This document shows, piece after piece, positions 1-62,030 of a stretch of 64,000 nt of DNA. The notes below the pieces were generated by a model that worked only from the letters and a program-made list of their open reading frames with translations, made no database searches and had not been told where the DNA came from. The DNA lies in contig CM069140.1 in the NCBI GenBank assembly GCA_035221665.1, forward strand, positions 9,920,001 to 9,984,000. The letters run 5' to 3'. The first letter of the stretch is position 1, and each line of letters opens with the position of its first letter. The stretch comes from Okamejei kenojei. Its lineage: Eukaryota. A program made the position numbers and the translations under genes.

Positions 1-1250
1 CTGCTTGGGTTTGAAACCCATGTTTTTAAACCATATTGGTCTTGCCAACTAGTTCCTATCCGGGCCTCAATACAAGATACCAAACACACAAAACTTCTGA
101 GGCAAGATCTTTACAACTTTGAAAAGTTCCACATCCTAAGAATATTAAGCTGAAGAACGAGTTAGAGATTGTTCAATAGTACATAATCCTCATAGATAAT
201 ATTGCAAGAGGGTGCAACCGTAGACACTAAAAGCTGGAGTAACTATGCGGGTCAGACGGCATCTCTGACCCGCATAGGAATGGGTGACATTGCGGGTCGA
301 GACCCTTCTTCACTGAAGTGCCTGATCACAGTTATCAGGGTGGGCACTTCACAGCAGTAGAGATTTAATTGCGGCTTCCTTGAGTTCATAATCAAGGGCC
401 AAGTGGGGAGGGCAATGTACTGGGACATTTGTAAGGGAGCATCATCAGCAAGGGCAATCAAGGGTTAAGATTATCTATGGAGTTCTGCTGCGTACAAAAG
501 CTGAAGTCAGCAAGGCTGCACAGCCAGCATGAGCAGTTCAACTCTGAGATAAGAGACAATGCGCCACTGTGCTATCTGCCTACTTGGTTCTCCATTAAGG
601 GCCAAGATTGCACCAGCAGTAATAACTTAGGCGGTTGGAGGGATTATCATGACACGTTATGGGTGTCATTGGAGATTAACAGAGACATCTCCAATGGCAC
701 CCCTAGGCAGATAGAGAATATGGCTATTGTCATGGTAACCAAGATTAGGCTAATTAGTGATTAGGCCTGGCCAACACAACCCAACAGATCCAGATGAAGG
801 AATAAGGTCACCCGCATAAATTCACGCCGAGGGATAGTCCTGGAAGAATCAGTCAATCACATACTATCCTGGATAAGATTTAGCGTTGAGTGGTAAGCAA
901 ACTTTAACAGGAGTGAATTGCCTCATCTTTGTCCCAAGCATGTATGTCATAAAATAACAATTTTATTTCTATACAAAGGAAAATGGGACTGCAGAAAAGG
1001 TTAAGAAGGCTGGGCCATTTCCTCCATGCATGCAATATTGATCACTCAGTAAAGACCTTTCATTGGTACAGTGACAATGTATATTCCTGTTTAAATCTCC
1101 CACAAGATGCATTTGATTTCCAGTCAATTGTTTACCATATGCATTAAAGGAAGTGTCACAAACAAGATACCATATCCAAAGATCCTAAGAAATGAAATAT
1201 ATTATTTTGCATGAAATATATCAATCCTAATAACAGCATTTTAATTCCAT

Positions 1251-1377
1251 TCTGAAGAAGGGTCTCGACCCGAAACGTCGCCTATCTCCTTCGCTCCTTA
1301 GATGCTGCTGCACCCGCTGAGTTTCTCCAGCTTTTTGTGTACCCTCGATTCTCCACATCTGCAGTTCCTTCTTTAAA
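1251..1377 (+). mobile_element. Solo hammerhead/pLTR cassette with 19-bp target-site duplication
   Basis: Starts tCTGAAGAAGGGTCTCGACCCGAAACGTC; flanked by aacagcattttaattccat at 1232-1250 and 1378-1396. Confidence 0.85.
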
Positions 1378-1408
1378 AACAGCATTTTAATTCCATATTT
1401 GTTCTCAC

Positions 1409-1497
1409 CTCATAACAGGCACTATTCCCAAGTGTCAATTGGTCCCGACAAACTGGTTCTACAAATTCTGTGACGTTGTCCGGCATTTGGGGAGCAA
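1409..1497 (-). other. Candidate exon (alternative or cassette) inside the SUCO-like gene
   Basis: caaatag|...TATGAG|gtgaga; one open frame (V)APQMPDNVTEFVEPVCRDQLTLGNSACYE; the exon also ends in ATG AG|gt (phase 2). Confidence 0.3.
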
Positions 1498-4133: not shown

Positions 4134-4608
4134 GCGCAGGAAAGAACTGCAGATGCTGGTTTAAATCGAACGTAGACACAAACTGCTGGAGTAACAGGCA
4201 GCATCTCTGGAGAGAAGGAATGGGTGACGTTTCGGGTCGAGACCCTTCTTCAGAGGAGTGAGCGGGATAGAGATAGAATGTAGTCAGAGACAGTAAGACC
4301 GGTGGGAGAACTGGAAAGGGGGAGGGGATGGAGAGAGAAGGAAAGCAAGGACTATTTGAAGTTAGAGAAGTCAATGTTCATACCGCTGGGGTGTAAGCTA
4401 CCCCAAGCGAAATATGAGGTGCTGTTCCTCCAATTTGCACTGGGCCTCACTCCGACAATGGAGGCGGCCCAGGACAGAAAGGTCAGATTGGGAATGGGAG
4501 GGGGAGTTAAAGTGCTGGGCAACCAGGAGATCATGTAGGTTAAGGCGGACTGAGCTGCGGTGTTCAGCGAAACGATCGCCGAGCCTGCATCTGGTCTCGC
4601 CGATGTAC
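4134..4608 (-). mobile_element. Penelope-like 3' fragment (GIY-YIG end plus pLTR with intact hammerhead core at 4226-4253)
   Basis: Minus-strand ...SLHPSGMNIDFSNFK*; gacgtttcgggtcgagacccttcttcag. Confidence 0.85.
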
Positions 4609-6209
4609 AGGAAATAAAAAGTGCGCAGTGTTTACTGGCATCAGAACATTAATTATAAGAATGAATCCACATTGTGTACTGTTAAAAAGTAATTACTGGC
4701 AATCTGTCCTGACCCACTAGACACTTCATTACAGCTAAAAAACGCAGACTAACGGCTTAACCAATTTTCAGGCACGACAACTGTGAATCAAGATAGCACA
4801 ATGCTTTACTGTGTAGAACATGTGGAGTCTCTCTCCGCAGATCTAGGTAGTTTTAAGGCAAATGCAGGACGAGTTATTTTTCCTATTAATTAAAGGAGAA
4901 ACAATTGCAGAAACATAATTTAAGAATTATAACATAAATACCAAAAACAATTGAAAAATAATGGGGGCACATCAAATTAATATAGACATGAATTTGCTGC
5001 ATTTCAGTGAATCGTGAAGTAATTTAAGTTTTCCAACAATGATGGATTTGATAAAGCAAGGCAAAAGCAAATAAGGATACAAAGCTGCACAGTTTACACA
5101 AACTAAGCTGCATTCAGTATTTGAACTTGGAACATCGAGCATTCAACACAGGAACAAGGCCGTAGGCCCACAATGTCCACGACGAACATGATGCCAAGTT
5201 AAAGCCATCTCCTCTGCCTACACGTGATCCATATGCCTCCATACCCTGCATATGCAAGGGCCAATCTAGAATCCTCTTACATGCCATTATCCAATCTGCC
5301 TCCTGCACCATCCCTACATCGTATTCCAGGAACCCACCAAAAAGTTCCGACTGTCTGTTCTATCTATGCCTTAGATATTTTTTTACATTCTATCACGTCT
5401 CAACCACCAACGCTCAAGATTCAAAAGAGTTTATTCTCAGGTGTTCCAGATAAGACAATGAAATTCAAGCTTTGCTTCAGCACAACAGAATATAGTAGGC
5501 ATGAATACAGAACAGATCAGTGTTTCCAAGTTTGTCTAAACTCTCCTTGTAGCTAAAACCCTCTAATCCAGGCAGCATTCAGGTAAACCTCTCATGCACA
5601 CTCTCCAAAGCCTCATTCTTCCTGCAAAGGGGTGACCAACACTGCACACAATAACCCAAATGCTGCCTAACCAATGTTTGCACAACATAATAAAACTCGG
5701 GCCACAATACATGGATGTGTAAAGAAACACACCAGAGGCCTTAAAATGTTCAAATCCCTCTGAACATAATCATCTCAAATCCCAGGAGATGGCAGTTTCT
5801 ACAACTGGTAAACAAGTACTGCAATTGGAGCACCATTGTATATTTATAAAACTTACTTCACATTTCTCAAATGATGTTCAAGCAAGTGGGAAATATTGAA
5901 ATAATCCATACTTGGGAATTTTTTCATGTTTACAGTTGCCAAGTGCACAATAACCATAAGAAAATGTTAATACATGCACATTTGTCTTTAAATTTAAAAC
6001 CGTATGGCGTATCACAAACTTCAGGGATGGGATTTCCAGATTTTATATTAAATGCACAAATTTTCAATGAACGGGAATTTTATCTTCCGCACTAAAAATA
6101 TTTCCATTCATGTCCACTAAGGAAGCTGCAAATCAATTTAAATGTAAAATGTATGCCCTACATCTGCTTGCATCTTAGGAATCTGCAGATGCATTCTGCC
6201 TCCAGCTAT

Positions 6210-6416
6210 GTGTAGGAAAGAACTGCAGATGCTGGTTTAAACCGAAGATAGACACAAAAAGCTGGAGTAACTCTGCGGGACAGGCAGCAGACCCTTCTTC
6301 AGACTGCAGACATTGGGGAGGCTGAAGAAGGGTCTCGACCCAAAGCGTCACCCATTCATTTTCTCCAGAGATGCTGCCTGTCCCGCTGAGTTACTCCAGC
6401 TTTTTGTGTCTATCTT
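6210..6416. mobile_element. Inverted pair of pLTR/hammerhead cassettes
   Basis: aagatagacacaaaaagctggagtaactc...gagttactccagctttttgtgtctatctt fold-back; cores on both strands. Confidence 0.8.
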
Positions 6417-7409
6417 AGAAATGCACATCAAACTGCTTTAGATCAAATCATAAAACAAATCAAATTGAAGAGCAAGTAGCAATGGAGAAGCTACATACTA
6501 GCAGGAAAAAGCAGAATAGGTTAAATGAAGTAGAGTGGGCTGCAGTTAATAAAGATCAGTGTGCTGTCAAATTTGATTTAATTGAAGAGACACTTTAAAT
6601 AACCTTGTTCATTTATTATCCATTGTTGTAAAAAAAAATAAACACAATGACCCAGAAATGGACAGATGGAATCTCATGCTTCCTGCATGGAGCAGACACA
6701 CATCAGTAAATCAATACAACTTGCAAAAGGATCTGTAACAGTGTCAACAACTTCACTAAAACATGATCTCACTATCGACATCTTCACCATTTCAATTAAT
6801 AACAGAATAGACAACATTAATATAAACTAAACTCCTCCCTTGGTTCTATTCTGTTAATTCGAGGATATCTTTAAGTGACAAAACACATGCACCTGCAACA
6901 TCACTCAGTCTCATGGGTCCATGATGGGAAGTATTAAAACTAGAGCCTCACCTGCAAATAGCAAATTGCTCCAAGGAGACCAATTCTTTCTCCATCCCCC
7001 AACCCTTAGTTTTTTCCTGTGTGTCCATTTTCTATCCATCTCTAATTTAGATTTAATTAACTATTCCCACCATAATCATTAGCAGATCCTACTCACTATT
7101 TAAACCACACTAGTTGAGATACATGTACCATTGATCCTGTATTTCACCAAAGGTTCCAGAGGTCCACAAAATTAAATTGAGACCAAAAAAATAATAATTT
7201 ACACTGCAAATCTCTTTAAGCCAAAAGAGAAGATTAAACAAATCCAATTCTGAGCTTGTACCAGCAAAATGTGGTCCATTATCATAAATGTAATCATCAT
7301 ATTGATAGATTTCTACTGCTTTCATTTTGTTTCCGTCAGCAGGAATCAGTACAGAACTAAATGCTCACAGTATGTGGACGGGAGAAGGTACAGTTAATAA
7401 TCGGGAAAC

Positions 7410-11428: not shown

Positions 11429-14400
11429 TACCACTGAACCACTATCTAGAAGTCAGGAGAGAGTTGGAATGTTCCGTCCACTTCCATGAACAATTACATT
11501 TTCAACCTTGGATTGTCATCTTATCTACTGCCCCAAAATTGACACTCTCCGAAACCACAACATTATTACTGTTTCTTTACAAGCCGCACAAGCAGGCAGC
11601 ACTGTGGCACAGTGGTAGAGTTGCTGCCTCACAGAGCCAGCCAGCCACCCTGGTTCAATCCTGACTATGTCTGTATGGATTTGTGCTTTCTCCGAGCGAT
11701 TGCGTGGGCGTTCTCCAGGAGCTCTGGTTTTCTTCCCACACTCCAAGACATACAGTTCTGTACGCTAATTGGCTGGGTAAAATTGTCCCTAGTGTGCAGG
11801 ATCATATTAGTGCACGGGGATCGTTGGTCAGCACAGACTCGGTGGGCCACACAGCATCTCTAAAGCAAACTCACCAATACATCATCAATAGCATCTGCCA
11901 AAGCCACCTGCCACCGAGAAAATCAAACAAAAACAGGCTAGTGGAAATCTTACAATCTCCAAGTGCCCCAAGGTACAGAACATCTCGATAATCTTTTTTA
12001 AACTATTTATTACCACTATGGTCTTGAATATCATTAACCACATGCATTCAAAATGCCTCACTATCAAATTAAGTGCAGTTATAAAGGCCACAGAATGCTG
12101 GCTCCTTCAGCAATTAAAATCTTACAAATTATTAATCAGCAAGGGACTCGAGTGTCACATAGATCATGGAAGATGGCAGAGTTCAGTCCAAATGTACACC
12201 AATTATAAAGCATGAAAATCTTGCACTATTTATAACAAACTAAAATAACAAGGTGTTATGACATATTGTAATGGCTTACCTGTAAGAAATCAGAAGATAC
12301 AATGCAATTTTAAATATCAAAACAAAAAAAACTAACATTCTCAATTTATTCCAGTTTAAATCTCTGCCAACCTTTATAATAGCAAGTGAAGATTGTAAAT
12401 TTAGTTTTGGATATGACTTTTTTTTACTGGGCCATTTAGAATCTCCACTGAGAAGTCTTAAAAACAACTGTGATTACTCATATCACAGGTAGACATAAAT
12501 TGCTGGAGTAACTCAGCAGGTCAGGCAACATTTCTGGAGAAAATGGAAGGGTGACATTTCAGGTCTAAATCTGAAAATCAATCTAAATCATCATGTATCC
12601 ATGTTCTCCAGAGACGCTGCATGATTGGCAGAGTTACTCCAGCATTTTGTGCCCATCTTTGATATAAACCAGCATCTGCCGTTTCTTTTTTATTACTCGT
12701 GCCACAGTTGGGCATTGGACACCGTGTTGCGGTTCTTTCCTTTCCGAGGAAAGTTTACATCATTTATACTTCTCTCTGCTTACCCTCACTAACATCTTTT
12801 GCTTTATTACTAGTTCTGTAAAGTATTATAAAAATGTCCAATCAGTCACAGAGAGAACACACAAACTCCACACAGGTAGCACAAGAGGTTAGCATTGAAT
12901 CAGGATCACTGGAAGCATGCGGCTGCAACTCAATTAGCTGCACCAAATGTCATGATGATGTGTGCAAATTTAAATAGACGGTTCAGTTCAAATCAGATAC
13001 AGAAAGATTTTAAAAAGGGGAAGAAAATTGAGGGAGAAAAATACACGTTAAAAACTTGGGACATAGAAACAATTATAATGGTGGATTTGCAGGATCCGAG
13101 TAATATATGCATCGTAGTACATAATCATGAGAAGGTTAAATTAAAATAACGTTGCAACTTCAGCAATTCAATGCGTTTCAAGATGGTCAGTGAGTTGAAA
13201 TATTCAGAAAACAAATGTGGAATGCTTCAATTATTCCAACAAACTCTGGAAGTTGCATTTATCCACACATTGCTCCCTTGTTTGTAGTTGTTCTCCCATT
13301 TGTACTTAATTGCATGGATCATTTGCCTCACTACCAATTCGGTAATTTAAAAAAATTGCTAAAATTTTAATTAGCTAAAATGTCAAATCACTCAATGACA
13401 AATACTCATATTGTATTAATAACATTCATCTCAAAGTCTTTCCGCTGACTGGTTAGCACGCAACAAAACCTCAATAAACTAAACTCAAACTACCTTACTA
13501 ACTTCTTTGCACCATAACCTTTGCATGCTAATTAACATTTATACATTTTCTTGAGAAATTTCCATGGCACTTTCTGAATTGCTGAAATACTAATTCACAT
13601 CTCAAATCAAAACTGCCATTGAGAATGGAGGCCTTCGTATTAAAATAGGACAATTAAAAATACCCTGTTGAGGTGTAAAAAGAATGAGGGTTGAAGAGTT
13701 GCAAACCTAACCACCTTCCAGATATTTAATCAAAAGATTAGTTTATGCACAGTTCTCTTGCTCTCTAATAGGAAATTCAAAACTATACAAACAATATTTT
13801 ACAACCGGTTCGATTCGACCAGCAATTTAAAGCTAACAGTGTGTAACACTTCTGCTAATGCAGGCCCAAAGGGCAATGCTTAAATAATGCAAGGCTCACT
13901 GTGCTTTGGAAAATTCAACAGCACTGGGCTGGGAAATTAAGCAGCTATTCAAGAGGAAAAAAGATATGAAGCCGATGGCCTTGCTCAACAATCGGTCACT
14001 TGTTTGATCTGGGCCACAAATGAGCTGACACTGCAGATGATACATGTCAGCCTGGAAAGAGTCAGAGGCAAGAAAGTTAAAGCTAGGTGACCTTGAACGC
14101 AATTGGCAATGTTGACACGACATTGATCAAGGATCCAAATGTTTTCTTTCTCAAGGAAAGTATGCAATCTACTTGCCTCATTCACCTCTCTTGGCTTCCA
14201 CATGATATAACAGCAGGAACGGACACTATTTTTAAGAGGCATACAATTCTCACAGCATATCTTTTTACCCACTTATCACACACTGGCATGCTATCACACA
14301 AGACACTATTTAAAAGTCATATTTGCAGTATATTCCACAGGAATTCGCTTTTGATAACCATATCAAGATTGCAGAAGGTTTCGACCCAAAACGTCACCCA

Positions 14401-15874: not shown

Positions 15875-16619
15875 CTTCTCACAGCAATTGACATTCTCTT
15901 GGCCTTGGTGGCTCGGTGCGCCGCGCTCGCCGGGTTCAGTCGCCGTGGGTGCGATCAGCGGCCTCCATGAAGGCGGGGGCCTGGGCCTAGGCCGAGGCCG
16001 GGGCTGGGGCCTGGGCTGAGGCCGGCAGCCAGGGAGGCCGGGCCGCACATGGAGGGAGCGGGAGCGGGAGCCGGAGCCGCGTCCGCCGCCGCCGCCGCCG
16101 CCGAATCTTCGCGCTGTCGAGTTAGAACCTCATTAGTATTCAAACCCGCGGCCACGCCCCCTCCCCAGGCCACGCCCACCACCTCCCTCACCTCCATCCA
16201 GCCCCGCCTCCTCCTCCGCCGCCGCCAGCATCGTGGACGTCTCCGCATTGATGTCGGAGGCGAATAAAAGGAGCAGCGGGGGGAAGGGGGTGGGGGCGAA
16301 TTCAAGTAGCCCGCCCCCCTCCTTAACTCCCGGCGTCATCCGATAAGCAGCCACTCAGCAACCTCCCCCACTGTTGCGTCAGCTCCCCACTCTATCCTGC
16401 CGCAATGCAGTCTGGGGGTTGTAGTTCCACAGCGGCCACGTGGGGGGGAGAGGGCGAGGCCTGAGCACACCATTGACACGTCTGCGGTAAATTGTCAATG
16501 TGGTTTTTAATGCATTTTTGGTTTTGATCGATGTGACGGATCATGTCTTCTGTTTCGTTTGTTTTTGTTAAATGACAGACAGTCGCGGGACAAGGTTGGA
16601 AGTTGCGGACAAGGGGGTG

Positions 16620-16688
16620 TGACGTGTTGACGTGTTGACGTGTTGACGGCCTGGGCCAGCTGACGGACGCAGTGACGTGGTGACGCGC
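16620..16688 (+). promoter_or_regulatory. Cluster of TGACG CRE/UPRE-like sites
   Basis: (TGACGTGT)x3 at 16620-16643, TGACG at 16644, 16661 and 16681, exact UPRE TGACGTGG at 16673-16680. Confidence 0.6.
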
Positions 16689-16766
16689 GGTGTCCGCTGA
16701 GCGCGCCTGAGCCTCGCGGGCCGGCGTCCGTCCGCCCGCCAACCGTCCGCCAACGGTCCCGCCGAC

Positions 16767-16952
16767 ATGTTGCGGCTGCGGCTGCCCCCCCTCCTCCTCC
16801 TGTGCTGCTGCTGCTGCTGCGGCTGGGCCCCGCTCTGCTTCGGCTTCTCGCAGTCCGTTGACAGCGACTTCACCTTCACTCTGCCGGCGGGGCAGAAGGA
16901 GTGTTTCTACCAAACTATGAAGAAAGATGCCACCCTGGAGATCGAGTATCAG
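16767..16952 (+). CDS. TMED5: TMED5 (p24 gamma-2) coding exon 1: signal peptide and start of GOLD domain
   Basis: gccgacATG start; [62 protein letters not shown] matches TMED5 [18 protein letters not shown]; donor CAG|gttggc, phase 0, 186 nt. Confidence 0.96.
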
Positions 16953-17029
16953 GTTGGCCACTGGGTTGTTTCCCACTGGGTTGTTGCTCAAAGTTATGTT
17001 GTTGATCCATCTATCCCACGTGTGTGCGA

Positions 17030-17382: not shown

Positions 17383-17708
17383 CCCCTGGGGGGCTCTAAA
17401 GAAGAGCCTCGACCTCACCTATCCATGTTTTCCAGAGATGACACCTGACCTGCTGAGTTCCTCCAGCACTTTGTATCCTTTTGGTCTAGACTCAGTGCTG
17501 GGTACATGGAACAAGCTGCCACAGGACGTTTTTGAGGCAGGTAGCATAAGAGCATTTAAAGGACATTTGGACAGGTACACGGATATGAAAGGTTTAGAAG
17601 GATATGGGCCAAAAGCAGCAAATGGGACTTGCTCAGATGTGGCATCTTCGTCGTCCTGGGTGAGTTGGACCAAAGAGCCTGTTTCCATGCTGTATGACTC
17701 TTACTTTT

Positions 17709-17958
17709 AAAGAAGGAACTGCAGATGCTGGAAAATTGAGGGTACACAAAAGGCTGGAGAAACTCAGCGGGTGCAACAGCATCTAAGGAGTGAAGGAGAT
17801 GGGCAACGTTTCGGGCCGAAAACCTTCTTCAGACTCTCGTTTCGGGCCAAAACCCTTCTTCAGACGAAGAAGGGTTTCGGCCCGAAACATTGCCTATCTC
17901 CTTCGCTCCTTAGATGCTGCTGCACCCGCTGAGTTTCTCCAGCTTTTTGTGTACCCTT
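17709..17958. mobile_element. Inverted pLTR cassette with three hammerhead-like cores
   Basis: Two tandem minus-strand cores (17805-17832, 17838-17863) and one degenerate plus-strand core (17865-17890). Confidence 0.8.
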
Positions 17959-18407
17959 CTGGGAGCACTACTTCGTTCAAGCTGTCACTTTCTAGATGGA
18001 ATGTTATAACTCCTCATGGTGTTATTCCAACATAAGGTTTAGGAGCTTGAGTTGAACATCCAGCCATTGTGTCTGTTCTGCAAGGTCTCATGGTCTTGAG
18101 CTCAACAGAACACCCAGATTCTGTCAGCCTTTACAATTAGACTTTACCTAAGCTAGGTTATTCAATTTACTAACTTTGTGTTTGCAACTGTGGCTGAGGC
18201 ATGTCAGGGTCTTATAAAATGAATGTAAAATAAGCATAGAAACACATCTTTAAAAAACTGTAAGTGCCTCTTTTTAGAGGACCACAGCCAATAAACAGGC
18301 AAATGACAAACAAGTTTGAAAAGACCAATGTTTACATGTCTATTAAACATTAGTGTTCATTCAATATTCTTTACAGAAGGTCTCCCAAACAAGCAATTCC
18401 CTCTCAT

Positions 18408-19075
18408 AGTCCTTCCAGGTCCGACGGAGGTTCACCTGCACCTCCTCCAACCTCATCTTCTGCATCCGCTGCTCCAGATGCCAGCTGATCTATATCAGTG
18501 AGACCAAGCGGAGGCTTGCCGATCGCTTCGCCGAACACCTCCGCTCGGTCCGCAATAACCAAGCCGACCTCCTGGTGGCTCAGCACTTCAACTCCCCCTC
18601 CCGTTCCGTATCCGACCTCTCGGTCCTGGGCCTCCTCCACGGCCAGAGTGAACAACACCGCAAGTTGGAGGAACAGCACCTCATATTCCGCTTGGGGAGT
18701 CTGCGTCCTCCGGGATTGAACATTGAATTTTCTCAATTCTGTTAACCCTTGCTGTCTCCTCCCCTTCCCACCTCTCCCTCAGCCCTCGGGCCCTGGCATT
18801 CCCTCTCTCTCTCTATCTCTCCCCCACCCAAGTCGCACTAGCTTCTCATTTTCACACTACAAACAGCTTACAATGGCCTGTTTCCTTTATCATCGATACA
18901 TTTTTGCATATCTTTCATTCATTGTTCTTTATCTCTCCACATCACCGTCTATATTTCTCGTTTCCCTGATCCCTAACCAGTCTGAAGAAGGGTCCCGACC
19001 CGAAACGTCGCCTATCTCCTTCGCTCCTTAGATGCTGCTGCACCCGCTGAGTTTCTCCAGCCGTTTGTGTACCCT
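18408..19075 (+). mobile_element. Penelope-like retroelement 3' fragment: GIY-YIG endonuclease plus pLTR with hammerhead motif
   Basis: Frame from 18413: FQVRRRFTCTSSNLIFCIRCSRCQLIYISETKRRLADRFAEH...HFN...LEEQHLIFRLGSLRPPGLNIEFSQFC*, a PLE GIY-YIG with CxxC; followed by CTGAAGAAGGGTCCCGACCCGAAACGTC. Confidence 0.9.
18982..19009 (+). ncRNA. Minimal type I hammerhead ribozyme motif in Penelope pLTR
   Basis: CUGAAGA + extra A + GGGU(CCCG)ACCC stem II + GAAA + CGUC (palindromic ACGU helix III, GUC cleavage triplet); helix I is short. Confidence 0.7.
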
Positions 19076-19274: not shown

Positions 19275-19655
19275 TGTAGGAAGGAACTGGAAGATGCTGG
19301 TTTACATCAAAATGCTGGAGTAACTCAGCGGGATAGGCAGCATCTCTGGAGAGAAGGAATGGGTGGCATTTTGGGTTGAGACCCTTCTTCAGACTGAGTC
19401 AGGGGTGAGGTAAACTAGAGATGTGGATGGGCAAGTTGTGAGAACGACAGATCAAAGTAGACAATGATCAAGCAAATGTAGAATTATTCGTTGTTGGCTA
19501 TGGGAAAGATGACAACATGACATACAAACAGTAAAATTAATCAGGAGGACAGTGAAACTAATTGGAGAATTAAGGTGGCGGAGGGATGGAGAGGGCAAGG
19601 GTTACTTGAAGTTAGAGGAATCAATAAGCTGCCCAAGTGAACTATGAGGTGCTGA
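19275..19655 (-). mobile_element. Penelope-like 3' fragment with pLTR
   Basis: Same pLTR and 3' end as 4134-4608. Confidence 0.75.
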
Positions 19656-30890: not shown

Positions 30891-30894
30891 AAGG

Positions 30895-38825: not shown

Positions 38826-39030
38826 GCACAAAGTGCTGGAATAACTCCACGGGTCAGGAAACATCTCTGGAGAACATGCATCGGTGACTTTTCCAGTCGG
38901 GACCCTTCTTCTGACTAAGATGGGCCCCGACCTGAAACGTCACCTATTCTTGTTCTCCACAGATGCTGCCTGACCTGCTGGGTTATTCCAGCACTTTGTG
39001 TCTTTCTTTTGTAAACCAGCATCTGCGGTT
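38826..39030. mobile_element. Inverted pLTR/hammerhead cassette in TMED5 intron 3
   Basis: cacaaagtgctggaataac...gttattccagcactttgtg fold-back, degenerate cores. Confidence 0.7.
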
Positions 39031-43765: not shown

Positions 43766-46700
43766 GATTACATGTCAAGAATGTTTTATTGTCATATGCC
43801 CTGAAATGGAACAATGACATTCTTACTGGAGTGACTCAGCAGGTCAGGAACATTTCTGGAGAAAAGGAATAGGTGACGTTTCGCGTTGAGACCCTTCTTC
43901 TCAACATGAAACGATACCTATTCCTGACCCACTGGGTTACTCCAGCAGTTTATGTCTATCTTCTGTGTAAACCAGCAGCTCCAGTTCCTTCCTACATGAT
44001 GAAATTCTTACTTACAGCAGCACAACTAATATTTAAACATGGCACTCTGTAAAAACTCACAATAAACAACAAACATTTGTTTTTAATAAGTAAAAAGAAA
44101 TGCTCCAAAGTCTATAGTTTGGAGCCTAGTTGGAGATTGCAGTGTTTAATAGCCTAATGGGTGCAGGGAAGAAGCTGTTCCTCAACGTGGAAGTTACAGC
44201 CTTTCTGTCTCCTATACCTTCGTAGCATTCTTCATTGCTATGGACAGCCCCAGCAGAATCATTTCAATCATTTATTTCATATACAAACAGCTCAGCCAAG
44301 TTCTATGGCACAAGCGACTGCAGATGCTGAAATCTTGAGTGAAGAAACCGCTGGGGAAACCCAGCGAGTCAGGCAGCATCCGGGGAGAGAGATGGACAGA
44401 TGAAGTTTTGGGTCGGGTGCTTCAATTTATTTCTCTGGAGAAGTGGCCACTTAGTGATGCGTGTTGATTCCTTTTAGTAATTTAGACTCTAGAGACACTG
44501 CGTGGAAACGATTACCCCGTACACTAGCACTATCCTACACACTAGGGTCAATTTACAATTTTTGCGGAAGCCAATTAATCTGCAAACTTGTACGTCTTTC
44601 GAGTGTGGGCTGGAACCAGAGCACCCGGAGAAAACCCACGTGGTCACTGGGAGAACGTACAAACTCCGAACAGTCATCACCCGCAGTTGGGATTGAATCC
44701 GGGTCTCTGACACTGTAAGGCAGCAACTCTACCGCTGCGCCACCGTGCAGTATGAAACAGGAGTCAACAGAGTTTAATTGTAATTCAATGGTCGAACAAA
44801 ACAACAGCATTGTTACTTGAACCAACCTACACTGTAACACACCCATTGGCACTAATTGTGGTCTGCAACTGTAACAGCAGTGTTCCTGACGTTACTGGTA
44901 CTTGAGTGGTCTTGCAAATAACAGTGCCCTGGTTAGTTTGCCCACTGTCACAATAGTTTAGTGGATTTCTCTGCCACTGAAGGCAGTGAAGGCCAATTCA
45001 CTGGATGTTTTCAAGAGAGTTAGATATAGCTCTCAGGGCTAACGGAATCGAGGGAGAAAGCAGGAACGGGGTACTGATTTAGGGTGATCATAATCAAATT
45101 GAATGGCGGGTGCTGGCTCGAAGGGTCGAAAGGCCTGCTATATTTTTCTATGTTTCTAGTTTTAGTTCATATCACTGAACATCAATGTAAATTCTCCTCT
45201 TCGTCACTGCTGGCATTATTAAGAGAGGTTCACATTCTTCATCATTGCAGCACTGAGAGACCCATGATAGTGGAGGAGTCATAGAATCATGCAGCATGAC
45301 AACAGCCCTTCAGCCCAACTTGCCTGCGCCGGCCAACATGCCCCATCTATCTAGTCCCACCTGCCTTTGTTTGGCCCATATCCCTTTAAACCTGTCCTAT
45401 CCACTGGGATACCTGTCTAAATGTTTCTTAAACATTTGTGATAGTACCTGCCACAGTTCCTCCTCTGGCAGCTTATTCCGTGCACCTACCCCCCTTAGTA
45501 TTAAAACAAAAATTGTCGCTCGGGTTCCTATTAAATCTTCCCACCCCCTTCACTTTAAACCTATGTCCTCTGGTTCTTGATTCCCCAACTCTGAGTAAAC
45601 AAATGTGTGCATTTGCCCTGTCTGTCCCTCATGATCCTGTACACCTCATCCTCCTGCACTCCAGGGTATCGAGTCCCATACTGCTCAACCACTCCCCATA
45701 ACTCAGACCCTCGAGTCCTGGCAACATCCTCATAAATCTTCTCTGCACTCTGTCCATCTTAACAACATCGTTCTTGTAATAAGGTGACCAAAACTGAACA
45801 CAACGTTCAAAATGAGAGTGGGCTGGTGCATCAAAGTTGCAGGTTGGGTCACTCCTGTTGACTGAACACGGGCAAAGTGATCACCCAAAAGGTTTGGTTT
45901 CTCTAGACAGCATTTGGAAATGGGCTCACCCTGTTGCAAGAATAAGACAAGTTCACTTCAATTCAAACGTGTTTTGAAATCTGAGCTAACCACCTCTTAA
46001 TAACTTTCAATCTCCATTGGTTCAGACTTGAGAGAGTTTTCAACTAGCTTTTAAATCTGTAATTTAATGTTAATGGCACTAGGTGGCAGCGCAATCCATG
46101 TTTTCCCAAATGTTAGTATTTCTGAAGCCGCCAAATAGCGTTCATAGAACGTAGAACAGTACAGCACAGTAACAGGCCCTTCAGCCCACAATGTCTGTGC
46201 TGAACACGATGCCTAATTGTCTAATTTCCTCTTCCAGCATGTGATCTATATCCCTTCAAGACAAGAGACATTTATTGTCACACGTACCAATTGGTACAGT
46301 GAAATATGTGGTCACCATACAGCCATATGAATAAAATAAAGAGCACAGAACACGATAGTCTTTAACATAGACATCCCCACACAGCGAAATCAAAGTTTCC
46401 CAATGTGAGGGAAGGCACCAAAGTTCAGTCCTCCTCCTCTATGTTGTCTTCTGTTGTTCACCCGTGGTCGGGGGGCTCCCGAACCGCTCGCTGTTGCCGC
46501 TCAGGCCCGCTCGCCGGGATGGTGGAACTCCGACGTCGGAACGGGAGAACAACCTCAGCGGCTTCCTTCCCTGCATAAAAGCCTCTTAAACACCACTATC
46601 ATGTCTGCTTCCAGTTACAGCTCAGTTTATTGCCCAGTGTACCGAGGTACACCTTTGTTGCGTGCTATCTAGTCAGCGGAAAGACAAGACATGATTACAA

Positions 46701-49700
46701 TCGAGCCATTTACAGTGTATAGACACATGACAAGGGAATAACGATTAGTGCAAGGTAAAGCAAACAAAGTCCGATCAAGGATAGTCCGAGGGTCACCAAT
46801 GAGGTGGATAGTAGTTCAACACTGCTCTCCAGTTACCACCACCACTACCTCTGACAGCACATTCCAGACACTCACCAATCTCTGGAAAAAAACATGCCCC
46901 GCTCATCTCTTTTAAACTTAGCCCCTCTCACCTTAAAGCTATGCTCCCTAATCTTTGATGTTTCCACATGGGAAAAAGGTTCCGTCTGTCTTACTTATTC
47001 CTCTCCTAGTTTTATATACTTCTATCATGTCTCACCTCAACATCCAATGCTCCACAGAAAACATTCTAAATTTGCTCATCCTCTCCTTGTAGCCAATACC
47101 CTCTAATCTAGGAACTTGGAACATTTCTACTGACTACCAGATTATATTTCAACAATTTATTTTTCTTGTGCATATCCCACAATTCTTGCTGATGGTTGAC
47201 AATGGGCCACTTGGCTATGGAACCTGCACAGAGTGGTGAACACAGGCCACTCCTTTGTGGGCTTCTCACATCTTCCCATCCAGTCTATCTTCACAATGCA
47301 TGAGTTTTGGATGGCTAGAAGTATCATTGAGGATAGCTGCCAACCTCACAAAGTGCTGGAATAACTGAGCAGGTCAGGCAACATCTCTGGAGAATAAGGA
47401 TGGGTGACCTTTTGGGCCAGGACCTTTCTTCAGACCCACATGGACCCCAGCAAGGCAATTGATAAGATTCTGCAAGGTAGGCTGGTCTGGGAGGATTCTC
47501 TATCCAGCCCATGGAGAAGACTGGATAGAGGATTGGCTTCATGGGTGGAAGCAGAGGGCAATGGTGGAAGATTGTTTTTTGGACTGGGGGCCTGTGACAT
47601 GGTGTGCCTCAGGGATCAGTGCTGGGCCCATTGCTATTTGCGGTTTATATGAACAATTTAGGTGAGAATGTATGAGGCATGATTAGTATGTAGATGAGTT
47701 AAAATGCATGGTATCATAGTGATGATGGTTATCAAAAATCACAGCAGGATTTTGATCAGTTGGGCAAGCGGGTGGAGGAATGGTTAATAGTGTTTAAACA
47801 GATAAGTGAGAGGTGTTGCATTTTGGGAAATCAAAGCAGGGCAGGGCCTTCACATGCATAGCAGGGCCCAGGGGGTGTTGTAGAGCAGAGGGAGCTTGGA
47901 GTGCAGGGACATACAAATACTCCAGAGAAAGCAATCCAAATGTGTTCATCCTCTCCTTATAGCTAATACCCTGCAAACGTATTGACTTGCAAATTATATT
48001 TTTCTTGTGCAAATTCAACAGTTCTTGCTGAGGGTGCCATTGGGCCACTTGACTATTGATCCCGCAGAGAGTGGTGAACACAGGCCACCCCAGTAAAGTC
48101 AGCAAAGTCAGCAATGTCCAATGAACGATAGTCCGAGGGTCACCAATGGTGTAGATAGTAGTTCAGGACTGCTCTCTAGTTGTGGTAGGATGGTTCAGTT
48201 GCCTGGTAACAGCTGGGAAGAAACTGTCCCTGAATCTGGAGGTGTGGAAAAGTAGAAGGCATGGGTTTGTGAGAGAGGAGAGTTTTACAAAGAATTGAAG
48301 GTCAACTTCTTCACACAGAGGGTAATGGATAGATGGAACGAGTTGACAGATGAAGTGGTTGAGAGGTAAAATTACCTTGTATATAATACGATGCTGTCTG
48401 TCCTGCTGGGTTACTGTAGAATTTAGTGCCTATCTTTCATATAAAATATACTTGGACAGGGAAGGTTTGCAGGGATATGGGCCAAATGTAGGCAAATGGG
48501 GCTAGTTTAGATGGGGCCTCTTAGACGGCATGGACAAGTTTGGCCGAAGGGCCTGTTTCTGTGCTTTAGTCTGGTTTAGTTTAGAGATACAGTGTCTAAA
48601 TGGGCCCTTTAGCATACTGAATCCACACCGACCAGCGATCAGCCGTACACTATTTCCATTCGACACATTAAGGACAATTCTTACAGAAGCCAATTAACCT
48701 ACAAACCTCCACGTCTTCGGAATTTGGGAAGAAACCGGAGCATCCCGAAAAAATACACGTGGTCACAGGGAGAACGTACAAACTCCATACAAACAGCTGA
48801 CTCCATAGTCAGGATCGAACCCGGGTCTTTGGCCCTGTAAGGCAGCAACTCTACCGTTGCACCACCCCCTACTGCCCCCCCACTGTGCTATACATCTGTA
48901 TGTTTGTGTGACCATGACTCTAAATACAGGGTATCCTTCCATGCCAACTGGATCGAAAGAGTAATCTTTAGCAGTCGTCCTTTACACCGTATCTCAAACA
49001 GGAAGCATTCTATCGATTCATTATCATGGTTTGTTGGTTGTGTCATTTGACTCACACCGGTGCTGTGTGCAAATGGGTGATGTCAGGTGATGCAGCGGAA
49101 ACATCTAATCCTTCAGCAGATCCGGCAGTAGATTCAACGCGCTGACTAAATCTGTGGAGTATCACGGCTCAAATTCCAGTGGCATTCCGGAAAGACTTGG
49201 CAGGGGATAGAAAGCATCCTGTGAGCAAACTTACAGGATACGCTCTGCACAAATACCAGATAAATGACGGAGGATACTTGAACCGGGCATTTATTTTTAG
49301 TGTGATAATGATACAAAAAATCTGAAGGAAATTTATAACCTGAAATTAATGCCTTCATAGGAATCGTGCCAAATGGACCTTGACTTGTTATATTCCAAAC
49401 CAGTGGCTCTATATATGTATATTATATATCTGTGTGTGTGTGTGTGTATTATACTGTATTATACTGTAATAATACAGTATAATTATTATATATATAAGGC
49501 CCCAAGCCCTCACTGGGGGAGTCCAGAACCAGGGGTCACAGTTTAAGAATAAGGGGCAGGCTATTTAGGACTGAGTTCAGGAAAAGCGTTTTCACCCAGA
49601 GAGTTGTGAATCTGTAGAAATCTCTGCCACAGAAGGCAGTGGAGGCCAATTTACTGGATGTTTTCAAGAGGGAGTTAGATTTAACTCTTAGGGCTAAAGG

Positions 49701-51223: not shown

Positions 51224-52317
51224 AGTGGGCACCTCCCTTCACTGGTGTTGCATTGAGTTTGGCCCACGACACTTCGGGAAGACTCAACAGTGAGTTCTGG
51301 CATCCCAGAACCAACCCCCTCAATACCTAAAGATCGGAGCGATTTGTGCAACCAAGTTTATCCCAGGTATAAGTATTTATTTCTCAAGTATTATAAACAA
51401 ACGACATTAATTTAATCCTTGCTTACAAGTTTTATGCATGTTTTAAAGCAAGGTCAAAAAATGGATTAGTTGGAGTTAATAGATCAAAATCTTTGCTCAA
51501 GATTCAGGGTTCATTAACAACTATTATGATGGCAGGAACATATTTTGCAAAACATATTATCTCCATTAAAGTGGCATTGCGTTGTTGCGTGCAATTGAAA
51601 GAAACATCTTAGTTTAGTTTTAGATTTAGAAATGCGGCGTGGAAACAGGCCCTTTGCCCACCGAGTCCACACCGACCAGCGATCCCCGTACACTAACATC
51701 ATCCTACACACTACGGTCTTTACCGAAGCCAATTAACCTACAAACCTGTACATCTTTGAAATGTGGGAGGAAACTGGAGCACCTGGAGAAAACCCACGCG
51801 GCCACAGGGAGAAGGTACAGACTCCGCACAGATCCACAGAGTCAGGATCGAACCCTGGTCTCTGGCGCCGTGAGGCAGCAGCTCTACCGCTGCGCCTCTG
51901 TGGGAATTTGGACACTAAACATTCTCTCCTTGTACGTTGCTGTCCATTCACAATATGACGTGATGGACTGGGCTCCTCTCTGCAATGCCCTGCGGTCACT
52001 GGAGGAGCAGAGCAGCGGCACTACCTGCTGAGCCACGTCACCACCTTAATGTTGCACAGCTTGTGTTATCTCAGTGTGAATGCTGCCAGATCCCGCATCC
52101 CCTACACCATACGTACTCTTCCAGTCCACCACTGCCTTTGATCGGACTTTATCTTGCACTAAACGCTATTCCCTTTATCATGTATCCACTCTTGCCTGCC
52201 TTCCATCACATACCTGTAGACTCTGGATCATACAAAACTATCAAGTCCATCTCTTAACCTGAACCAATTCCCTATCCTTGTTTATCCCTAACCCATAGAC
52301 TGAATGTGGCTCCAGGT

Positions 52318-55100: not shown

Positions 55101-55135
<35 letters not shown>

Positions 55136-55919: not shown

Positions 55920-56732
55920 CTGATGAACAAGAATATTCAGGAGAAGATGGTTAGGCAATACTGGACCAGCTAACGTCTAATCCAAGTACCCCCCCCCCCG
56001 TCCCACATTGAATCTTCTCATTGCTGCGCCCATTTTATTAGCACCACCCACGTGCTAGGAGCAGATTTAGGCCATTCGGCCCATCAAGTCTACTCCGCCA
56101 TTCAATCATGGCTGATCTGTCTCTCCCTCTTAACCCCATTCTCCTGCCTTCTCCCCATAACCCCTGACACCCGTACTAATCAAGAATCTATCTATCTCTG
56201 CCTTAAACATATCCACTTACTTGGCCTACAGCCTTCGGAGGCAAAGAATTCCATAGATTCACCACCCTCTGATTAAACTAACTAAACTCTCACGTCACTA
56301 AGAAATGAACACACATTGGGCAGGTGCATGGGCAGGAGGGATATGGGTCACACACGGGCAGGCGGGACTATTGTAGATGTCACAGCTTGGTCGACAAGGG
56401 CAAGTCAGGCCGAAGGGGCTGTTTCCGTGCTGTGTGACTCGATGACTTTTACTTTTAGACTTTCCTTTGGAGATACAGTGTGGAAACAGGCCCTTCGGCC
56501 CACTGAGTCCGTGCCGACCAGCGATCGCCCACCATACCAGCACTGTCCTACACACGGTACATTTTTCAATTTACTGAGGACAATTAACCTACAAGCCTGC
56601 ACGTCATTCGAGCGTGGGAAGAGAAAACTGGAGCGCCCGGAGAAATTTCCCCGCGGTCACAGGAAAGAACGTACAAACTCCGTACAGACAGCACCTGTAG
56701 TTAGGATTTAACCCGGGTCTCTGATGCTGTAA

Positions 56733-56892
56733 GGGGCCTGTCCCACTTAGGCGATTTTTTCACAGTCGTAGCGTGATGGCTTCTCTGGACCCCCCCCCCC
56801 CCCCACGACAATGTCTGTCACCCAGTCGACATCAAGTTACGACAAGCTACGTCGACCGGCGACACAACTCCTCGCGACTTGGCACCGGCCCT
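56733..56892. mobile_element. Short Harbinger-like MITE inserted in a SINE
   Basis: ggggcctgtcccac...ggcaccggccct splits SINE 'gctg-TAA-ggcagc' with TAA duplicated. Confidence 0.7.
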
Positions 56893-57639: not shown

Positions 57640-58575
57640 TCTATCCTTCACACGGGAAGCCGTACACATACCCCAGTTTGCATTGAAGGTGCCAAAGTAG
57701 AGATGGAAATCTTCAAATTCCCAGGAGTCAATATCATGTAACAATTACAGCACGGAAACACTTCCAGTCCGTGCTGACCAAGTCCCATCTAGCACTCAGA
57801 ATATCACCAACAACTTCTCCTGGACCGCCCATATTGAAGCAGCGACCAAGCACACCAACGCCTCTGCTTCCTTAGATGGCTTAGGATGTTTGGCATGTCC
57901 CCGACAACTCTCACCAACTTCCACAGGTGCGCCGCAGAACGCATTTTATCAGGATGCATCACAGCTTGGTTTGCGAACAGCTCCACCCAAGACCGCAAGA
58001 AATTGCAGCAAATTGTGGTCGCAGCCCTGACCATCACACAAGTCTGAAGAAGGGTCTCGACCCGGAAACATCTCCCATTCCTTCTCTCCAGAGTTGCTGC
58101 CTGTCCCAATAGACAATAGGTGCAGGAGTAGGCTATTCGGCCCTTCGAGCCAGCACTGCCATTTAATGTGATCATGGCTGATCATCCCCAATCAGTACCC
58201 CGTTCCTGCCTTCTCCCCATATCCCCCGACTCTGCTATTTTTAAGAGCCCTATCTAGCTCTCTCTCGAAAGCATCCAGAGAACCGGCCTCCACCGCCCGC
58301 TGAGTTACTCCAGCTTTTTGAGCATAACTTTGGTTTAAACCAGCATCTGCAGTTCCTTCTTACACACAAACCAACCTCCCTTCCATTGACTCCATTTACA
58401 CCTCACGCTGCCTCGGCAAGGCCAGCAGCATAATCGAGGACCAGTCGCACCCTGGCCGCTCCCTCTTCTCCCCTCTCCCATCAGGTAAAAGGTATCGAAG
58501 CGTGAAAACGCACACCTCCAAATTCAGGAGCAGTTTCTTCCCAGCTGTTATCAGGCAACTGAATCATCCTACCAC
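57640..58575 (+). mobile_element. Rex1/Babar-like LINE 3' fragment with nested insertions
   Basis: QRLCFLRWLRMFG...ILSGCITAWF, SHPGRSLFSPLPSGKRYRS...SFFPAVIRQLN; interrupted by pLTR cassette 58042-58362, itself interrupted by CR1 3' end 58108-58297. Confidence 0.8.
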
Positions 58576-59077: not shown

Positions 59078-60510
59078 CTAAAAGAAGAACAAGGGGGTTG
59101 ATACATGCGATCTTAAGACTAGATAGACTGTGTGGAGTTTGCACGTTCTCCCCTTGACAGCGTGGGTTTCCCCCGGGTGCTCCGGTTTCCTCCCGCATCC
59201 CAAAGACGTGCTGGTCTGTAGGCTAATTGCACTCTGAAAGTGCCCCATAGTGTGTAGGGAGTGGATGAGAAAGTGGGAAAGCAGAACTGGTGTGTGCGGG
59301 TCTTCAGACTGCCAGGGACAGAGCTGAATAATGCAAATGAGGATCAAGTTGATCAAGAGGCGATTCAGCCACTGGACCAATGCCTGCTCTATTAGTCGCT
59401 TGGATCATATATGCAGCGCAGCATTGTGGTGGCATAGGACAGACACAAAATGTTGGCGTAACTCAGCGGGACAGGCAGCATCTCTGGAGAGACGGAATGG
59501 GTCGAGACCCTTCTTCAGACTGAGGTGGCATGTTGGGTTTCAAGTCTTTATACATGAAACATTGTCTCTTCAATGTATTTATGTTGTGATTCTATGCACG
59601 ACAAACTTGTGTTGCGCGCGCCAGGAGATTTGAAGACTTAACATGCAATTAGTGTTGTCGGGCTCCTTTGACACTGATCTACAATTAGGTAGAGTCATAG
59701 AGTCATACAGCACGGAAACAGGCCCTTCGGTCCAACCCATCCATGCTGGCCAACACGCACCATCACAGCTAGTCTCACTTCCCCACATTGTAGGCACAGG
59801 AACAGCAGGCGCTGGAATCTTGTCCAGAACACAGTGCTGGAGAAACACTTGGGCAGCATCTCTAGAGACTGCAGATGCTGAAGAAGGGTCCTGATCTGAA
59901 GCGTCGCCTATCCATGACCTCCAGAGATGCTGCCTGACCCGCTGAGTTATCCCAGCACTTTGTGTTATACCCATTTAGCACACATTTGGCCCTATCCCTC
60001 TAAACCTTTCCTATCCATGTTCCTGTCCAAATGACTTCAATGTTGTGGTAGTGTCTGCCTCAACTACCTCCTCTGGCAGCTTGGTCCATATACCCAGTAC
60101 CCTCCGTGTGAAAAAGTTGTCCCTAACCCATTCCCCTCTTACCCATGCCCTCTAGTTCCTGATTCCCCTGCCCTGGGAAAAAAGACATTCCCCTCATGAT
60201 TTTGCCCATCTCCATAAGATCACCCCTCAGCCTCCTGCGCTCCAAGGAATAAAGTCCTAGATTGTCTGACTGCCTCAGACATATTTTGGAACAGATCGGG
60301 GAGGTGACCTCCTGTCCACAAGGTGGCACACTTCTTCTCTACTTTGGAAAATTGAAACCTTTGGAAAATTGCAAAGTTGCTGCATTTGCACCCAGCATCA
60401 TTAGCATAGTATCAATGAGATTTCAACCTGATTGATAAAGTGAATATGTGATCCTTAGGCAACCTACACTTACACACTCTCTCATTCTAGACAGCAGTCT
60501 ATGGGGTGAG

Positions 60511-60861
60511 TAAGGTCGTCAACGTTCTCTCTCCCAAATAAGGAACAAAAGGTCAAAATATGGGCCGACGGCAATTCCCGACGGCAATTCGCTGACCGAC
60601 TCGGCCGTGGCTGGGTGAATGATGAGTTGGCCCGGGTGCTGGACTGCACACAAAGCCCAGCCGGCGGGGCCAGCTGAGGAGTTGTAGCCCGCGTGACGTC
60701 GCTCGCAAAGCCCGACACCCCGTCCAACTCATGAACCAATCATCGGAGCGCCCTCTTCTGTCTTCTTAGGACCCCTTCGGTCATGGCTGACCATGGGTGT
60801 CTCCAGGGTGCTATTCTCTATATGGAGGATAACAGCTAATACGGGACAGTTGGCAACCCTA
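60511..60861 (-). mobile_element. hAT-type MITE, deleted/chimeric copy
   Basis: Reverse-orientation copy of the same family; 60750-60830 replaced by a piece of the 63108-63410 repeat. Confidence 0.7.
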
Positions 60862-61612
60862 GTGCTGTGACACACTCTATTCTCCCATCTCTATTCTCTA
60901 TTCCACATTCGATTAGACTCTAGACTTCACTTTAGGCATACAGTGTGGAAACAGGCCCTTCAGCCCATCCATGTCCTTCACGTGACATGCTGACCACCAA
61001 CCAACCATACACTGGCACTATCCTACACACTAGGGATAATTTACATTTTTTTAACAAAGCCAATTAACCTAATAACGTGCACGACTTTGGAGTGTGGGAG
61101 GAAACCAGAGCGCCCGGAGAAAACCCACGCAGTCACAGAAATAACGTACAAACTCTGTACAGTAAACACCCTTAGTCAGGATCGAACCCAGGTCTCTGCC
61201 GCTCTAAGGCAGCAACTCTACCGCTGCGCCACTTTGCTGCCCCTGAGTATCTGGAAGATTTTTCCATCTTTTTAAGCCACTCAGCTCGAAAGAGTGCAGA
61301 AGAAGATCTACGAGGATGATGCCAGGACTCGGGGGCCTGTGCTACAGGGAGAGGACAGGCAGACTAAGACTTTTTTCCTTGGAGCTCAGGAAGCCGAGGA
61401 GTGATCTGACAGTAGAGTTGGGGAAATCAAGAACAGAGCACATAGGTTTAAGTTGAGAGAGTTTTAATAGGAACCTGAGGGGCAACATTTTCCCACAGTG
61501 GGTGATAGGTGTATGGAACGAGCTGCCACAGGAGATAGTGGAGACAGTACTATAACAACATTTAAAGGATATTTGGACAGGTACGTGGATAGGAAAGGTT
61601 TAAAGGGCCAAA

Positions 61613-62030
61613 GGTAGACACAAACTGCTGGAGTAACACAGCGGGTCAGGCAGCATCACTGGAGAGAAGGAATGGGCAACGTTTCGGGTCGAGACCCTTC
61701 TTCAGACTGATGTCAGGGTAGTGGGCGGGACAAAGATAGAATGTAGTCAGAGACAGTAAGACTAGTGGAAGAACTGGGAAGGGGAAGGGGATGGAGAGAG
61801 AGGGAAAGCAAGGGCTATTTGAAGTTAGAGGAGTCAATGTTCATACCGCTGGGGTGTAAGCTACCCAAGCGAAATATGAGGTGCTGTTCCTCCAATTTGC
61901 ACTGGGCCTCACTCTGGCCATGGAGGAGGTCCAGGAGAGAAAGGTCAGATTGGGAATGGGAGGGGGAGTTGGAGTGCTGAGCCACCGGGAGATCAGGTAG
62001 GTTAAGACGGACTCAGCGGAGTTGTTCAGA
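61613..62030 (-). mobile_element. Penelope-like 3' fragment (GIY-YIG end plus pLTR/hammerhead)
   Basis: Closely similar to 4134-4608; core at 61678-61705. Confidence 0.85.

Follow-up and report, generated by a model that had tools for sequence, protein, structure and literature searches.

A 64,000-nucleotide stretch of the genome of the skate Okamejei kenojei (GenBank assembly GCA_035221665.1, contig CM069140.1, positions 9,920,001 to 9,984,000; hereafter the window, numbered from its first letter) is crowded with short repeat units that carry the core of a minimal hammerhead ribozyme. What are these units, and why do so many of them begin directly at the catalytic core? Here, the units are identified by their sequence as the terminal repeats (pseudo-long terminal repeats, pLTRs) of Neptune-type Penelope-like retrotransposons, carrying a minimal hammerhead motif. 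We propose that the short cassettes are run-off cDNAs that were primed in the 5' pLTR and halted at the 5' end of the element's RNA, and we give this reading, together with the Neptune-type origin of the units, a probability of roughly two in three (0.68). Throughout, positions with a plus or minus sign are counted from the first base of the core, and statements drawn from PMC4209133, PMC2377424, PMC7229834 and a 2026 preprint (bioRxiv 10.64898/2026.07.22.740005) refer to excerpts of these sources.

Extent of the repeat family

A profile built from 22 window copies recovered 47 arms in the window at E<=0.01, as compared with none in 5 shuffles. These merge into 35 sites, 10 of which are head-to-head inverted, and no head-to-tail tandem arrays were found among the 35, all being solo or head-to-head save for a short core duplication at 17805-17863. 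The initial annotation, made from the letters of the window alone, had reported roughly 25 copies. The dense repeat that it described is real but was undercounted, and the unit is present at all ten places that it named, offset by a few bases at most (on the minus strand at 4226, 17805, 24618, 25209, 33708 and 61678). Its suggestion that variation falls mainly in the stem II loop or consists of G-U wobbles did not hold, since the core is broken or missing in 35 of the 47 arms. A further six keep CUGANGA and GAAA only, and six keep the core together with ACGU and an NUH triplet; within this last group, only the cores at 1252, 4253 and 18982 combine a perfect stem II with GUC.

The genome of 2.76 Gb contains 60,097 exact matches to the 28-nt core, any 4-nt loop being allowed, split evenly between the strands, and no match to the reversed control. 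Random loci hold 204 arms per 560 kb, which extrapolates to about one million arms genome-wide; the arm density in the window is twice that of random loci.

The units belong to a Neptune-type Penelope-like element

Three fragments in the window had been described as ending in GIY-YIG-coding sequence. In line with this, GIY-YIG C-termini are found at 18410-18742 (+), 4613-4358 (-) and 62027-61821 (-), with 91%, 67-73% and 75% identity, respectively, to a long genomic copy. A genome search with the frame 18410-18742 gave at least 150 matches at >=90% identity, from 129,550 candidates. Among them, the long copy L051 has a 1032-amino-acid frame in which a reverse transcriptase (RT) is followed by a C-terminal GIY-YIG domain, the arrangement of single-open-reading-frame (single-ORF), endonuclease-bearing (EN+) Penelope-like elements, with a C-X4-C-xx-C linker in between. 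Although its profile matches (RVT_1, E=6e-4; GIY-YIG, E=0.004) both fall below Pfam's cut-offs, the motifs are visible by eye, and Atlas clusters place the frame at 0.97 with RVT_1/GIY-YIG/HTH_animal. A CX2-5CxxC linker before GIY-YIG is common to Neptune and Nematis and absent in Poseidon (PMC8557442); the linker in L051 fits the Neptune clade, while by itself it does not separate Neptune from Nematis.

The motif also occupies the ends of complete elements. In 4 of 29 copies with a long 5' part, a second motif lies 710 nt upstream at an identical place. These four (L101-L104) are organised as pLTR-ORF-pLTR, each end carrying the motif, and in three of the four the two motifs are 3,956-3,964 nt apart. 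In these elements an ATG lies 162 nt downstream of the core, and the reading frames are broken. The hallmarks of Penelope-like elements, namely pLTRs arising from a partial tandem, an inverted 5'-truncated arm and a 30-40 nt tail at one end (PMC8557442), are all found here, the partial tandem in L101-L104. The Penelope origin originally proposed for the units is thus borne out by the RT and GIY-YIG frame and by the presence of the motif in both pLTRs of full elements. Furthermore, at least six types of 3' untranslated region (3' UTR) run into one common core, and in multi-copy clusters their GIY-YIG sequences are 68-96% identical to that of family B, which suggests that the core would have been kept constant between master lineages, though the copies compared were recruited by a recognisable core.

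Several features of individual elements were also seen. In the full-length copy L101, about 1.45 kb of the 5' ORF region is duplicated internally (two 5' matches 1,454 nt apart). In L101-L104, an upstream ATG 50 nt past the core begins a frame of 57 codons (+50 to about +220), overlapping the start of the main ORF in a different frame. The main ATG lies within AAG/GTATGC, a sequence similar to a splice donor, at which no joint was seen. At another locus (L076), a short cassette with a 14-bp target duplication lies inside the 5' coding part of a copy of its own family.

Structure of the hammerhead motif

The motif consists of CUGAAGA, one extra A, a 4-bp stem II and GAAAC-GUC, with loop 3 absent, and fits the published descriptor of minimal hammerhead ribozymes (min-HHRs). 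The min-HHR core (CUGANGA ... GAAA with an NUH triplet) is intact in 6 of the 47 window arms. G10.1-C11.1 closes helix II, A9 is followed by an extra base, and the helix II pairs are formed in 58, 63, 60 and 61 of 63 long copies. The palindromic positions 15.2-16.2, with no loop 3, are present as GAAACGTC in the core, so that helix III is possible only as a dimer. Pair 1 of helix I is formed in 63/63 of the long copies and pair 2 in 60/63, while pair 3 is formed in 0/63, being A-C in all; helix I therefore has 2 bp, short of the 4-5 bp of min-HHRs. The minimal type I core, palindromic ACGU helix III, 2-bp helix I and very high copy number proposed initially are all confirmed, and the motif would file as a short-helix variant of the min-HHR, with the 2-bp hammerhead of Drosophila virilis as precedent. 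A comparison with Rfam, also proposed initially, gave 13 matches at E<=1, none of them to a hammerhead family.

The same core occurs in metagenome contigs, where helix I positions 1-4 are paired in 56, 54, 45 and 37 of 60 copies by several pair types, that is, with covariation. Helix I there has at least 3 bp in 78/100 and at least 4 bp in 62/100 copies, as compared with at least 3 bp in 9/116 of a chance control (viral contigs, among the matches listed). Because these copies share the core and have a longer, covarying helix I, they indicate that the scaffold is a true hammerhead motif, the helix I of which is unusually short in the skate lineage.

Two metagenome contigs from other organisms (L331 and L376) carry head-to-head minimal hammerheads about 25 nt apart, with a 4-bp helix I, echoing the inverted pairs of the skate. 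In all skate families, the 5' GUCU (-2 to +1) can pair with a conserved AGAU downstream (about +47 to +51), and the purine-rich core can pair with a pyrimidine run past the cleavage site. Predicted folds prefer a core-sequestering shape over the hammerhead, and neither monomers nor homodimers ever gave a hammerhead (z -1.7 to +0.6).

Insertion ends pile up at the edge of the core

The ends of family B were examined in 39 of 83 exact-core copies from C1:1-3.78 Mb. Their 3' ends lie at about +94 or about +130 (24/39 at +85-101 and 14/39 at +120-135), and of their 5' ends 19 lie at -9 to 0, only 2 at -300 to -10 and 18 further upstream, so that about half of the young copies end 5' within the 10 nt just upstream of the catalytic core. 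When copies were recruited by downstream sequence only, 97 of 232 ended 5' at -8 to +3 (a further 16 of 248 were not alignable), and 96 of 152 copies had unique upstream flanks. Genome-wide, the 5'-start classes comprise 4,749 copies at 0, 4,028 at -1, 7,458 at -2, 6,152 at -3 and 10,079 at -4 or longer, this last class being mixed with long copies. Upstream of the core, all six 3' UTR clusters come together at YCAGT.

Target duplications, typically of about 15 bp (range 11-25 bp), flank 25 of 62 solo copies that start at -3, and also the window copy at 1251-1378; because they have target duplications of their own, the short solo copies are real insertions. Inverted pairs nearly always consist of one +94 arm joined to one +130 arm, and the tail is present on exactly one arm in 30 of 36 pairs and on both in 0 of 36. 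G precedes 30 of the 62 starts at -3, against a background of 0.28 (p=4.5e-4), and where a single extra base is present at the start it is G in 4 of 5; copying of the RNA cap by a reverse transcriptase is expected to leave an extra G.

The cleavage site leaves no such footprint. In family B, 155 copies have a purine followed by a start exactly at the cleavage site, and at a control position 4 nt past the cut site there were 2,844 matches, with about 10 true starts in the first 100 as judged by eye; there is thus no peak of copy starts at the cleavage site relative to the control. Because copies do not pile up there, the cut RNA would not be a favoured template, and the retrozyme-like behaviour suggested at the outset finds no support.

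Two further groups of copies stand out. At 13 of 100 listed copies (L199, L219 and 11 more), the upstream junction is identical, and the flanks are identical in the two loci examined; here a single inverted cassette seems to have multiplied within a different repeat. The older family C (CCATG; window 25138-25237, 59876-59990 and others) is short in 21/21 copies, and GIY-YIG is absent upstream. The family could be non-autonomous, or just of greater age.

A model for the origin of the cassettes

The 5'-end pile-up likely marks the start of the element's own RNA. Transcription would begin at the A of YCAGT or close by, 3 nt 5' of the core, and the RNA would thereby supply only 2-3 nt for the 5' strand of helix I. 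Such a start at -3 would leave three bases 5' of the core, which would account for both the 2-bp helix I and the invariant but unpaired A. Using consensus sequences from a table in PMC4581360, YCAGTCT in the long families matches the initiator YYANWYY with this A as +1; counted from it, CGACC at +18 to +22 matches the Bridge element CGANC, and +29 to +33 fits the range set of the downstream promoter element (DPE). Bridge and DPE spacing are both present at 3 of 13,230 other initiator-like sites. The enzyme would prime both target strands at two internal sites (+94 and +130), as it does in vitro for the green anole element. Priming in the 3' pLTR would yield the long truncated copies; priming at +94 or +130 in the 5' pLTR, with run-off at the RNA end, would yield a cassette of 97-135 nt; and two cDNAs joined head to head would yield the inverted pairs. 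Cleavage by the hammerhead itself would be rare, confined to dimers and probably assisted by protein, and would remove a 31-nt capped leader; inserted copies would be inert.

A number of observations weigh against a transcription start at this point. The 5' ends form a zone and not a point: they are most frequent at -2, and some fall as far out as -4 to -9. The excess of G is not significant when compared with long truncated copies (13/42; p=0.10), and the -3 copies used for it were picked by pattern. The promoter match was noticed post hoc, its GTC is also required by the hammerhead, and CGANC is broken in some families. Since the related metagenome motifs mostly lack YCAGT and have a helix I of 3-6 bp, the link between start site and hammerhead does not hold generally. 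D. virilis Penelope starts its transcript 46 nt before an intron that ends at helix I (PMC2377424, PMC4209133). Finally, the RNA data are contigs of eight runs, the four larger possibly being DNA, and give no 5' ends, strand or level; repeat ends are present in contigs of three RNA libraries, and no contig covers the ORF start. We found no paper that ties a hammerhead to a transcription start or describes a 5' pile-up, in a literature search outside which lay the supplements, which may hold chondrichthyan examples.

An extension of this model is more tentative, and we put it at below even odds. One 35-nt stretch could be both core promoter and hammerhead, and the ribozyme at the capped tip of the mRNA could act as a self-decapping switch. 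The cassettes, in their hundreds of thousands, would then be fossil 'strong-stop' cDNAs, and the pseudo-LTR would be restored, much as in LTR elements, when such a cDNA jumped from the 5' end of the RNA to its 3' repeat.

Alternative explanations for the pile-up

The main rival to the transcription-start model is a palindrome or splice-related stop. It keeps the same origin of the units and takes the pile-up for an RT stop, or a template switch, on RNAs that start further upstream, the stop site being either the palindrome around TCAG-T-CTGA or a branch point or 3' splice site in the pyrimidine tract. Many inverted junctions are indeed centred on TCAG-T-CTGA, as palindromes at inverted pLTR junctions are known from rotifer elements (PMC3846280), but 52 of the 97 short copies ending at -8 to +3 are not inverted, and in family B the sequence CCAG weakens the palindrome and leaves the pile-up unchanged. 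Likewise, a pyrimidine-rich tract ending in CAG is present in all families, the D. virilis intron ends at helix I and the 5' ends are spread from 0 to -9; against this, the first 100 copies starting at -1 have no common upstream exon, most ends retain AG, and there is no GT..AG joint among the matches listed. On balance we consider this explanation unlikely.

A related candidate, a splice-gated ribozyme for which an upstream exon provides helix I as in D. virilis, appears improbable, as upstream sequence is not shared among the first 100 copies that start at -1. No complement to the 3' strand of helix I was found at <=1 mismatch within -600 to +4100 of the full element, nor was a GT..AG joint seen among the RNA-contig matches listed.

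That the cassettes are a self-propagating, non-autonomous family copied from short masters, akin to short interspersed elements (SINEs) or retrozymes, is decidedly improbable. The cassettes do contain a putative core promoter and both priming sites, family C is short in 15/15 unbiased copies and lacks GIY-YIG upstream in 6/6 more, and the 2026 preprint derives vertebrate retrozymes from pLTRs. However, families A, B, D and E include both short and long copies with identical diagnostic bases, flanks are unique and start positions differ from copy to copy, the units are dispersed or inverted with no head-to-tail arrays bounded by cleavage sites, and family B starts at the cleavage site are no commoner than at the control position. 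The separate ribozyme-bearing retroposon family that had been envisaged is therefore not upheld, and the cassettes are better read as direct by-products of autonomous elements.

Copies in the window and the TMED5 locus

The copies discussed in the text, and the host gene in which many of them lie, are as follows (strand in brackets; inverted units are unstranded).

1233-1250 (+): 18-bp target-site duplication, left copy; its partner on the right is 1379-1396
1251-1378 (+): short cassette of young family B, 35-nt tail, starting 1 nt 5' of the core
1252-1279 (+): minimal hammerhead core, intact (CUGAAGA, extra A, 4-bp stem II, GAAAC-GUC), with cleavage predicted after 1279
4134-4613 (-): 5'-truncated element with GIY-YIG C-terminus (4613-4358), pyrimidine-rich 3' UTR, intact core (4253-4226) and tail
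6209-6426: head-to-head inverted pair, both cores broken, tail on a single arm
12463-12676: old inverted pair, cores lost
16770-39514 (+): host gene TMED5, coding exons at about 16770-16955, 32528-32623, 38034-38234 and 39299-39514
17704-17959: inverted unit in TMED5 intron 1, core duplicated (two minus arms, one plus arm), stem II U-G variant
18408-19075 (+): 5'-truncated family B element with GIY-YIG C-terminus (18410-18742), 239-nt 3' UTR, CCAGT (18977-18981) and intact core (18982-19009)
19297-19395 (-): broken-core copy running on into a 3' UTR
20569-20701 (-): tailed copy, core broken
24534-24706: inverted pair, minus-arm core kept but with a stem II mismatch and GUU
25138-25237 (-): short cassette of older family C, starting 3 nt 5' of the core, 13-bp target duplication, ACGU broken
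33625-33814: inverted pair with broken ACGU
35584-35779: old inverted pair, cleavage site broken in both arms
38792-39012: old inverted pair with broken cores
43805-43987: old inverted pair with broken cores
58041-58162 (+): copy keeping CUGANGA and GAAA, without ACGU
61613-62027 (-): 5'-truncated element with GIY-YIG C-terminus (62027-61821), 3' UTR and core (61705-61678) with a GUU triplet

The TMED5 protein is most similar to a named skate protein. As had been noted, copies lie in introns on both strands: the TMED5 introns hold 24 of the 47 window arms, 15 minus and 9 plus. Only one of these is an intact sense arm, that of the element at 18408-19075, in which CCAGT at 18977-18981 is initiator-like.

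Elsewhere in the window, a GC-rich stretch at about 15900-16900 resembles a two-way promoter region, with a possible minus-strand gene start. A second abundant short repeat family, SINE-like, occurs at 23920-24125, 34218-34442, 44536-44748, 48479-48865, 51694-51898, 56345-56734, 60926-61237 and 62068-62565. Broken frames for an RT and endonuclease of the long interspersed element (LINE) type lie at 28543-30938 (-) and 32880-33416 (-).

Decay of inserted copies

In about 125-130 copies recruited by sequence downstream of the core, non-CpG core positions are 92-98% intact and CpG positions down to 70-83%. The catalytic G12 is 78% intact, and at the centre of the helix III palindrome both bases are 70% intact, these being CpG sites. 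Inserted copies thus decay neutrally, following CpG mutation, and most are decayed and likely inert. The G-U wobbles singled out initially mostly follow the CpG mutation pattern, with one family having a fixed U-G, and no stem II pair was altered on both sides in 10 aligned copies. Selection on the copies, in the form of excess conservation of core or stem II, is therefore not borne out, as decay tracks CpG at catalytic sites too and there is no two-sided change; nor, with a single intact sense arm in the TMED5 introns, is cleavage of the host pre-mRNA supported.

It is barely credible that dispersed copies act as ribozymes, cutting host pre-mRNA or giving off circular RNAs. Tens of thousands of copies do retain an intact core, stem II and ACGU, a hammerhead with a 2-bp helix I is on record for D. 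virilis (PMC4209133), and that of the anole element cleaves when protein is present (PMC11167929). However, single minimal hammerheads did not cut and dimers cut little (PMC4209133), 8 of 9 Xenopus dimers did not cut, helix I has 2 bp here, none of the predicted folds is a hammerhead, bases at catalytic positions are lost at CpG rates, and the TMED5 copies lie on both strands.

Comparison with known systems

That min-HHRs occur in Penelope-like pLTRs, with solo and opposite-strand copies, is already known, and as such the skate family is ordinary. Its significance rests on the insertion-end pattern, not on ribozyme activity: the family is a very large fossil record of Penelope-like insertion, and two questions become testable, namely the role of the hammerhead for the element and the regeneration of pseudo-LTRs, for which the excerpt of PMC2377424 states that no obvious mechanism is known.

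Non-LTR retrozymes share with the skate units type I hammerheads, a pLTR ancestry and a presence in vertebrates, including one chondrichthyan (PMC7229834; bioRxiv 10.64898/2026.07.22.740005). They are, however, head-to-tail tandem repeats processed into circles (PMC7229834), whereas the skate units are dispersed or head-to-head, target-duplicated and not bounded by the cleavage site; by the tandem criterion, the skate family is not a non-LTR retrozyme.

Min-HHRs sit in the pLTRs of metazoan Penelope-like elements, including Xena, Poseidon and Neptune of fish (PMC4209133). The skate motif resembles them in its type I layout without loop 3, palindromic 15.2-16.2, extra base between 9 and 10.1 and G10.1-C11.1, as well as in its presence in both pLTRs, its many solo copies and its opposite-strand pairs. 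It differs in that helix I has 2 bp and an invariant A-C mismatch where theirs has 4-5 bp, helix II having 4 bp in the skate, and its 60,097 exact cores are far above the 4,000 of coelacanth and 9,000 of Xenopus; cartilaginous fish are not named in the excerpted main text of that paper. Penelope of D. virilis likewise has a promoter inside the pLTR with initiator and DPE, which are putative in the skate, and a 2-bp helix I (PMC2377424, PMC4209133). In D. virilis an intron separates the start site from helix I (PMC2377424), whereas none was found in the skate, where the inferred start abuts the core.

A functional parallel is offered by the Poseidon element PAc of the green anole, in which the hammerhead cut only with protein and was dispensable for insertion (PMC11167929). 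PAc belongs to a different clade and its ORF starts inside the hammerhead, as opposed to 162 nt downstream in the skate; a 5' pile-up at the edge of the hammerhead is not described in the main text of that paper. The two are alike in having two priming sites that bracket the tail and in extending both target strands, and just as no reads end at the cleavage site in the anole work, no skate copies pile up there. The +94 and +130 ends and the one-tail inverted pairs of the skate thus match the two-site, two-strand priming of the anole enzyme; taken together, the 5' pile-up, the one-tail rule and the lack of starts at the cleavage site are in agreement with its in vitro behaviour and predict an exact transcription start.

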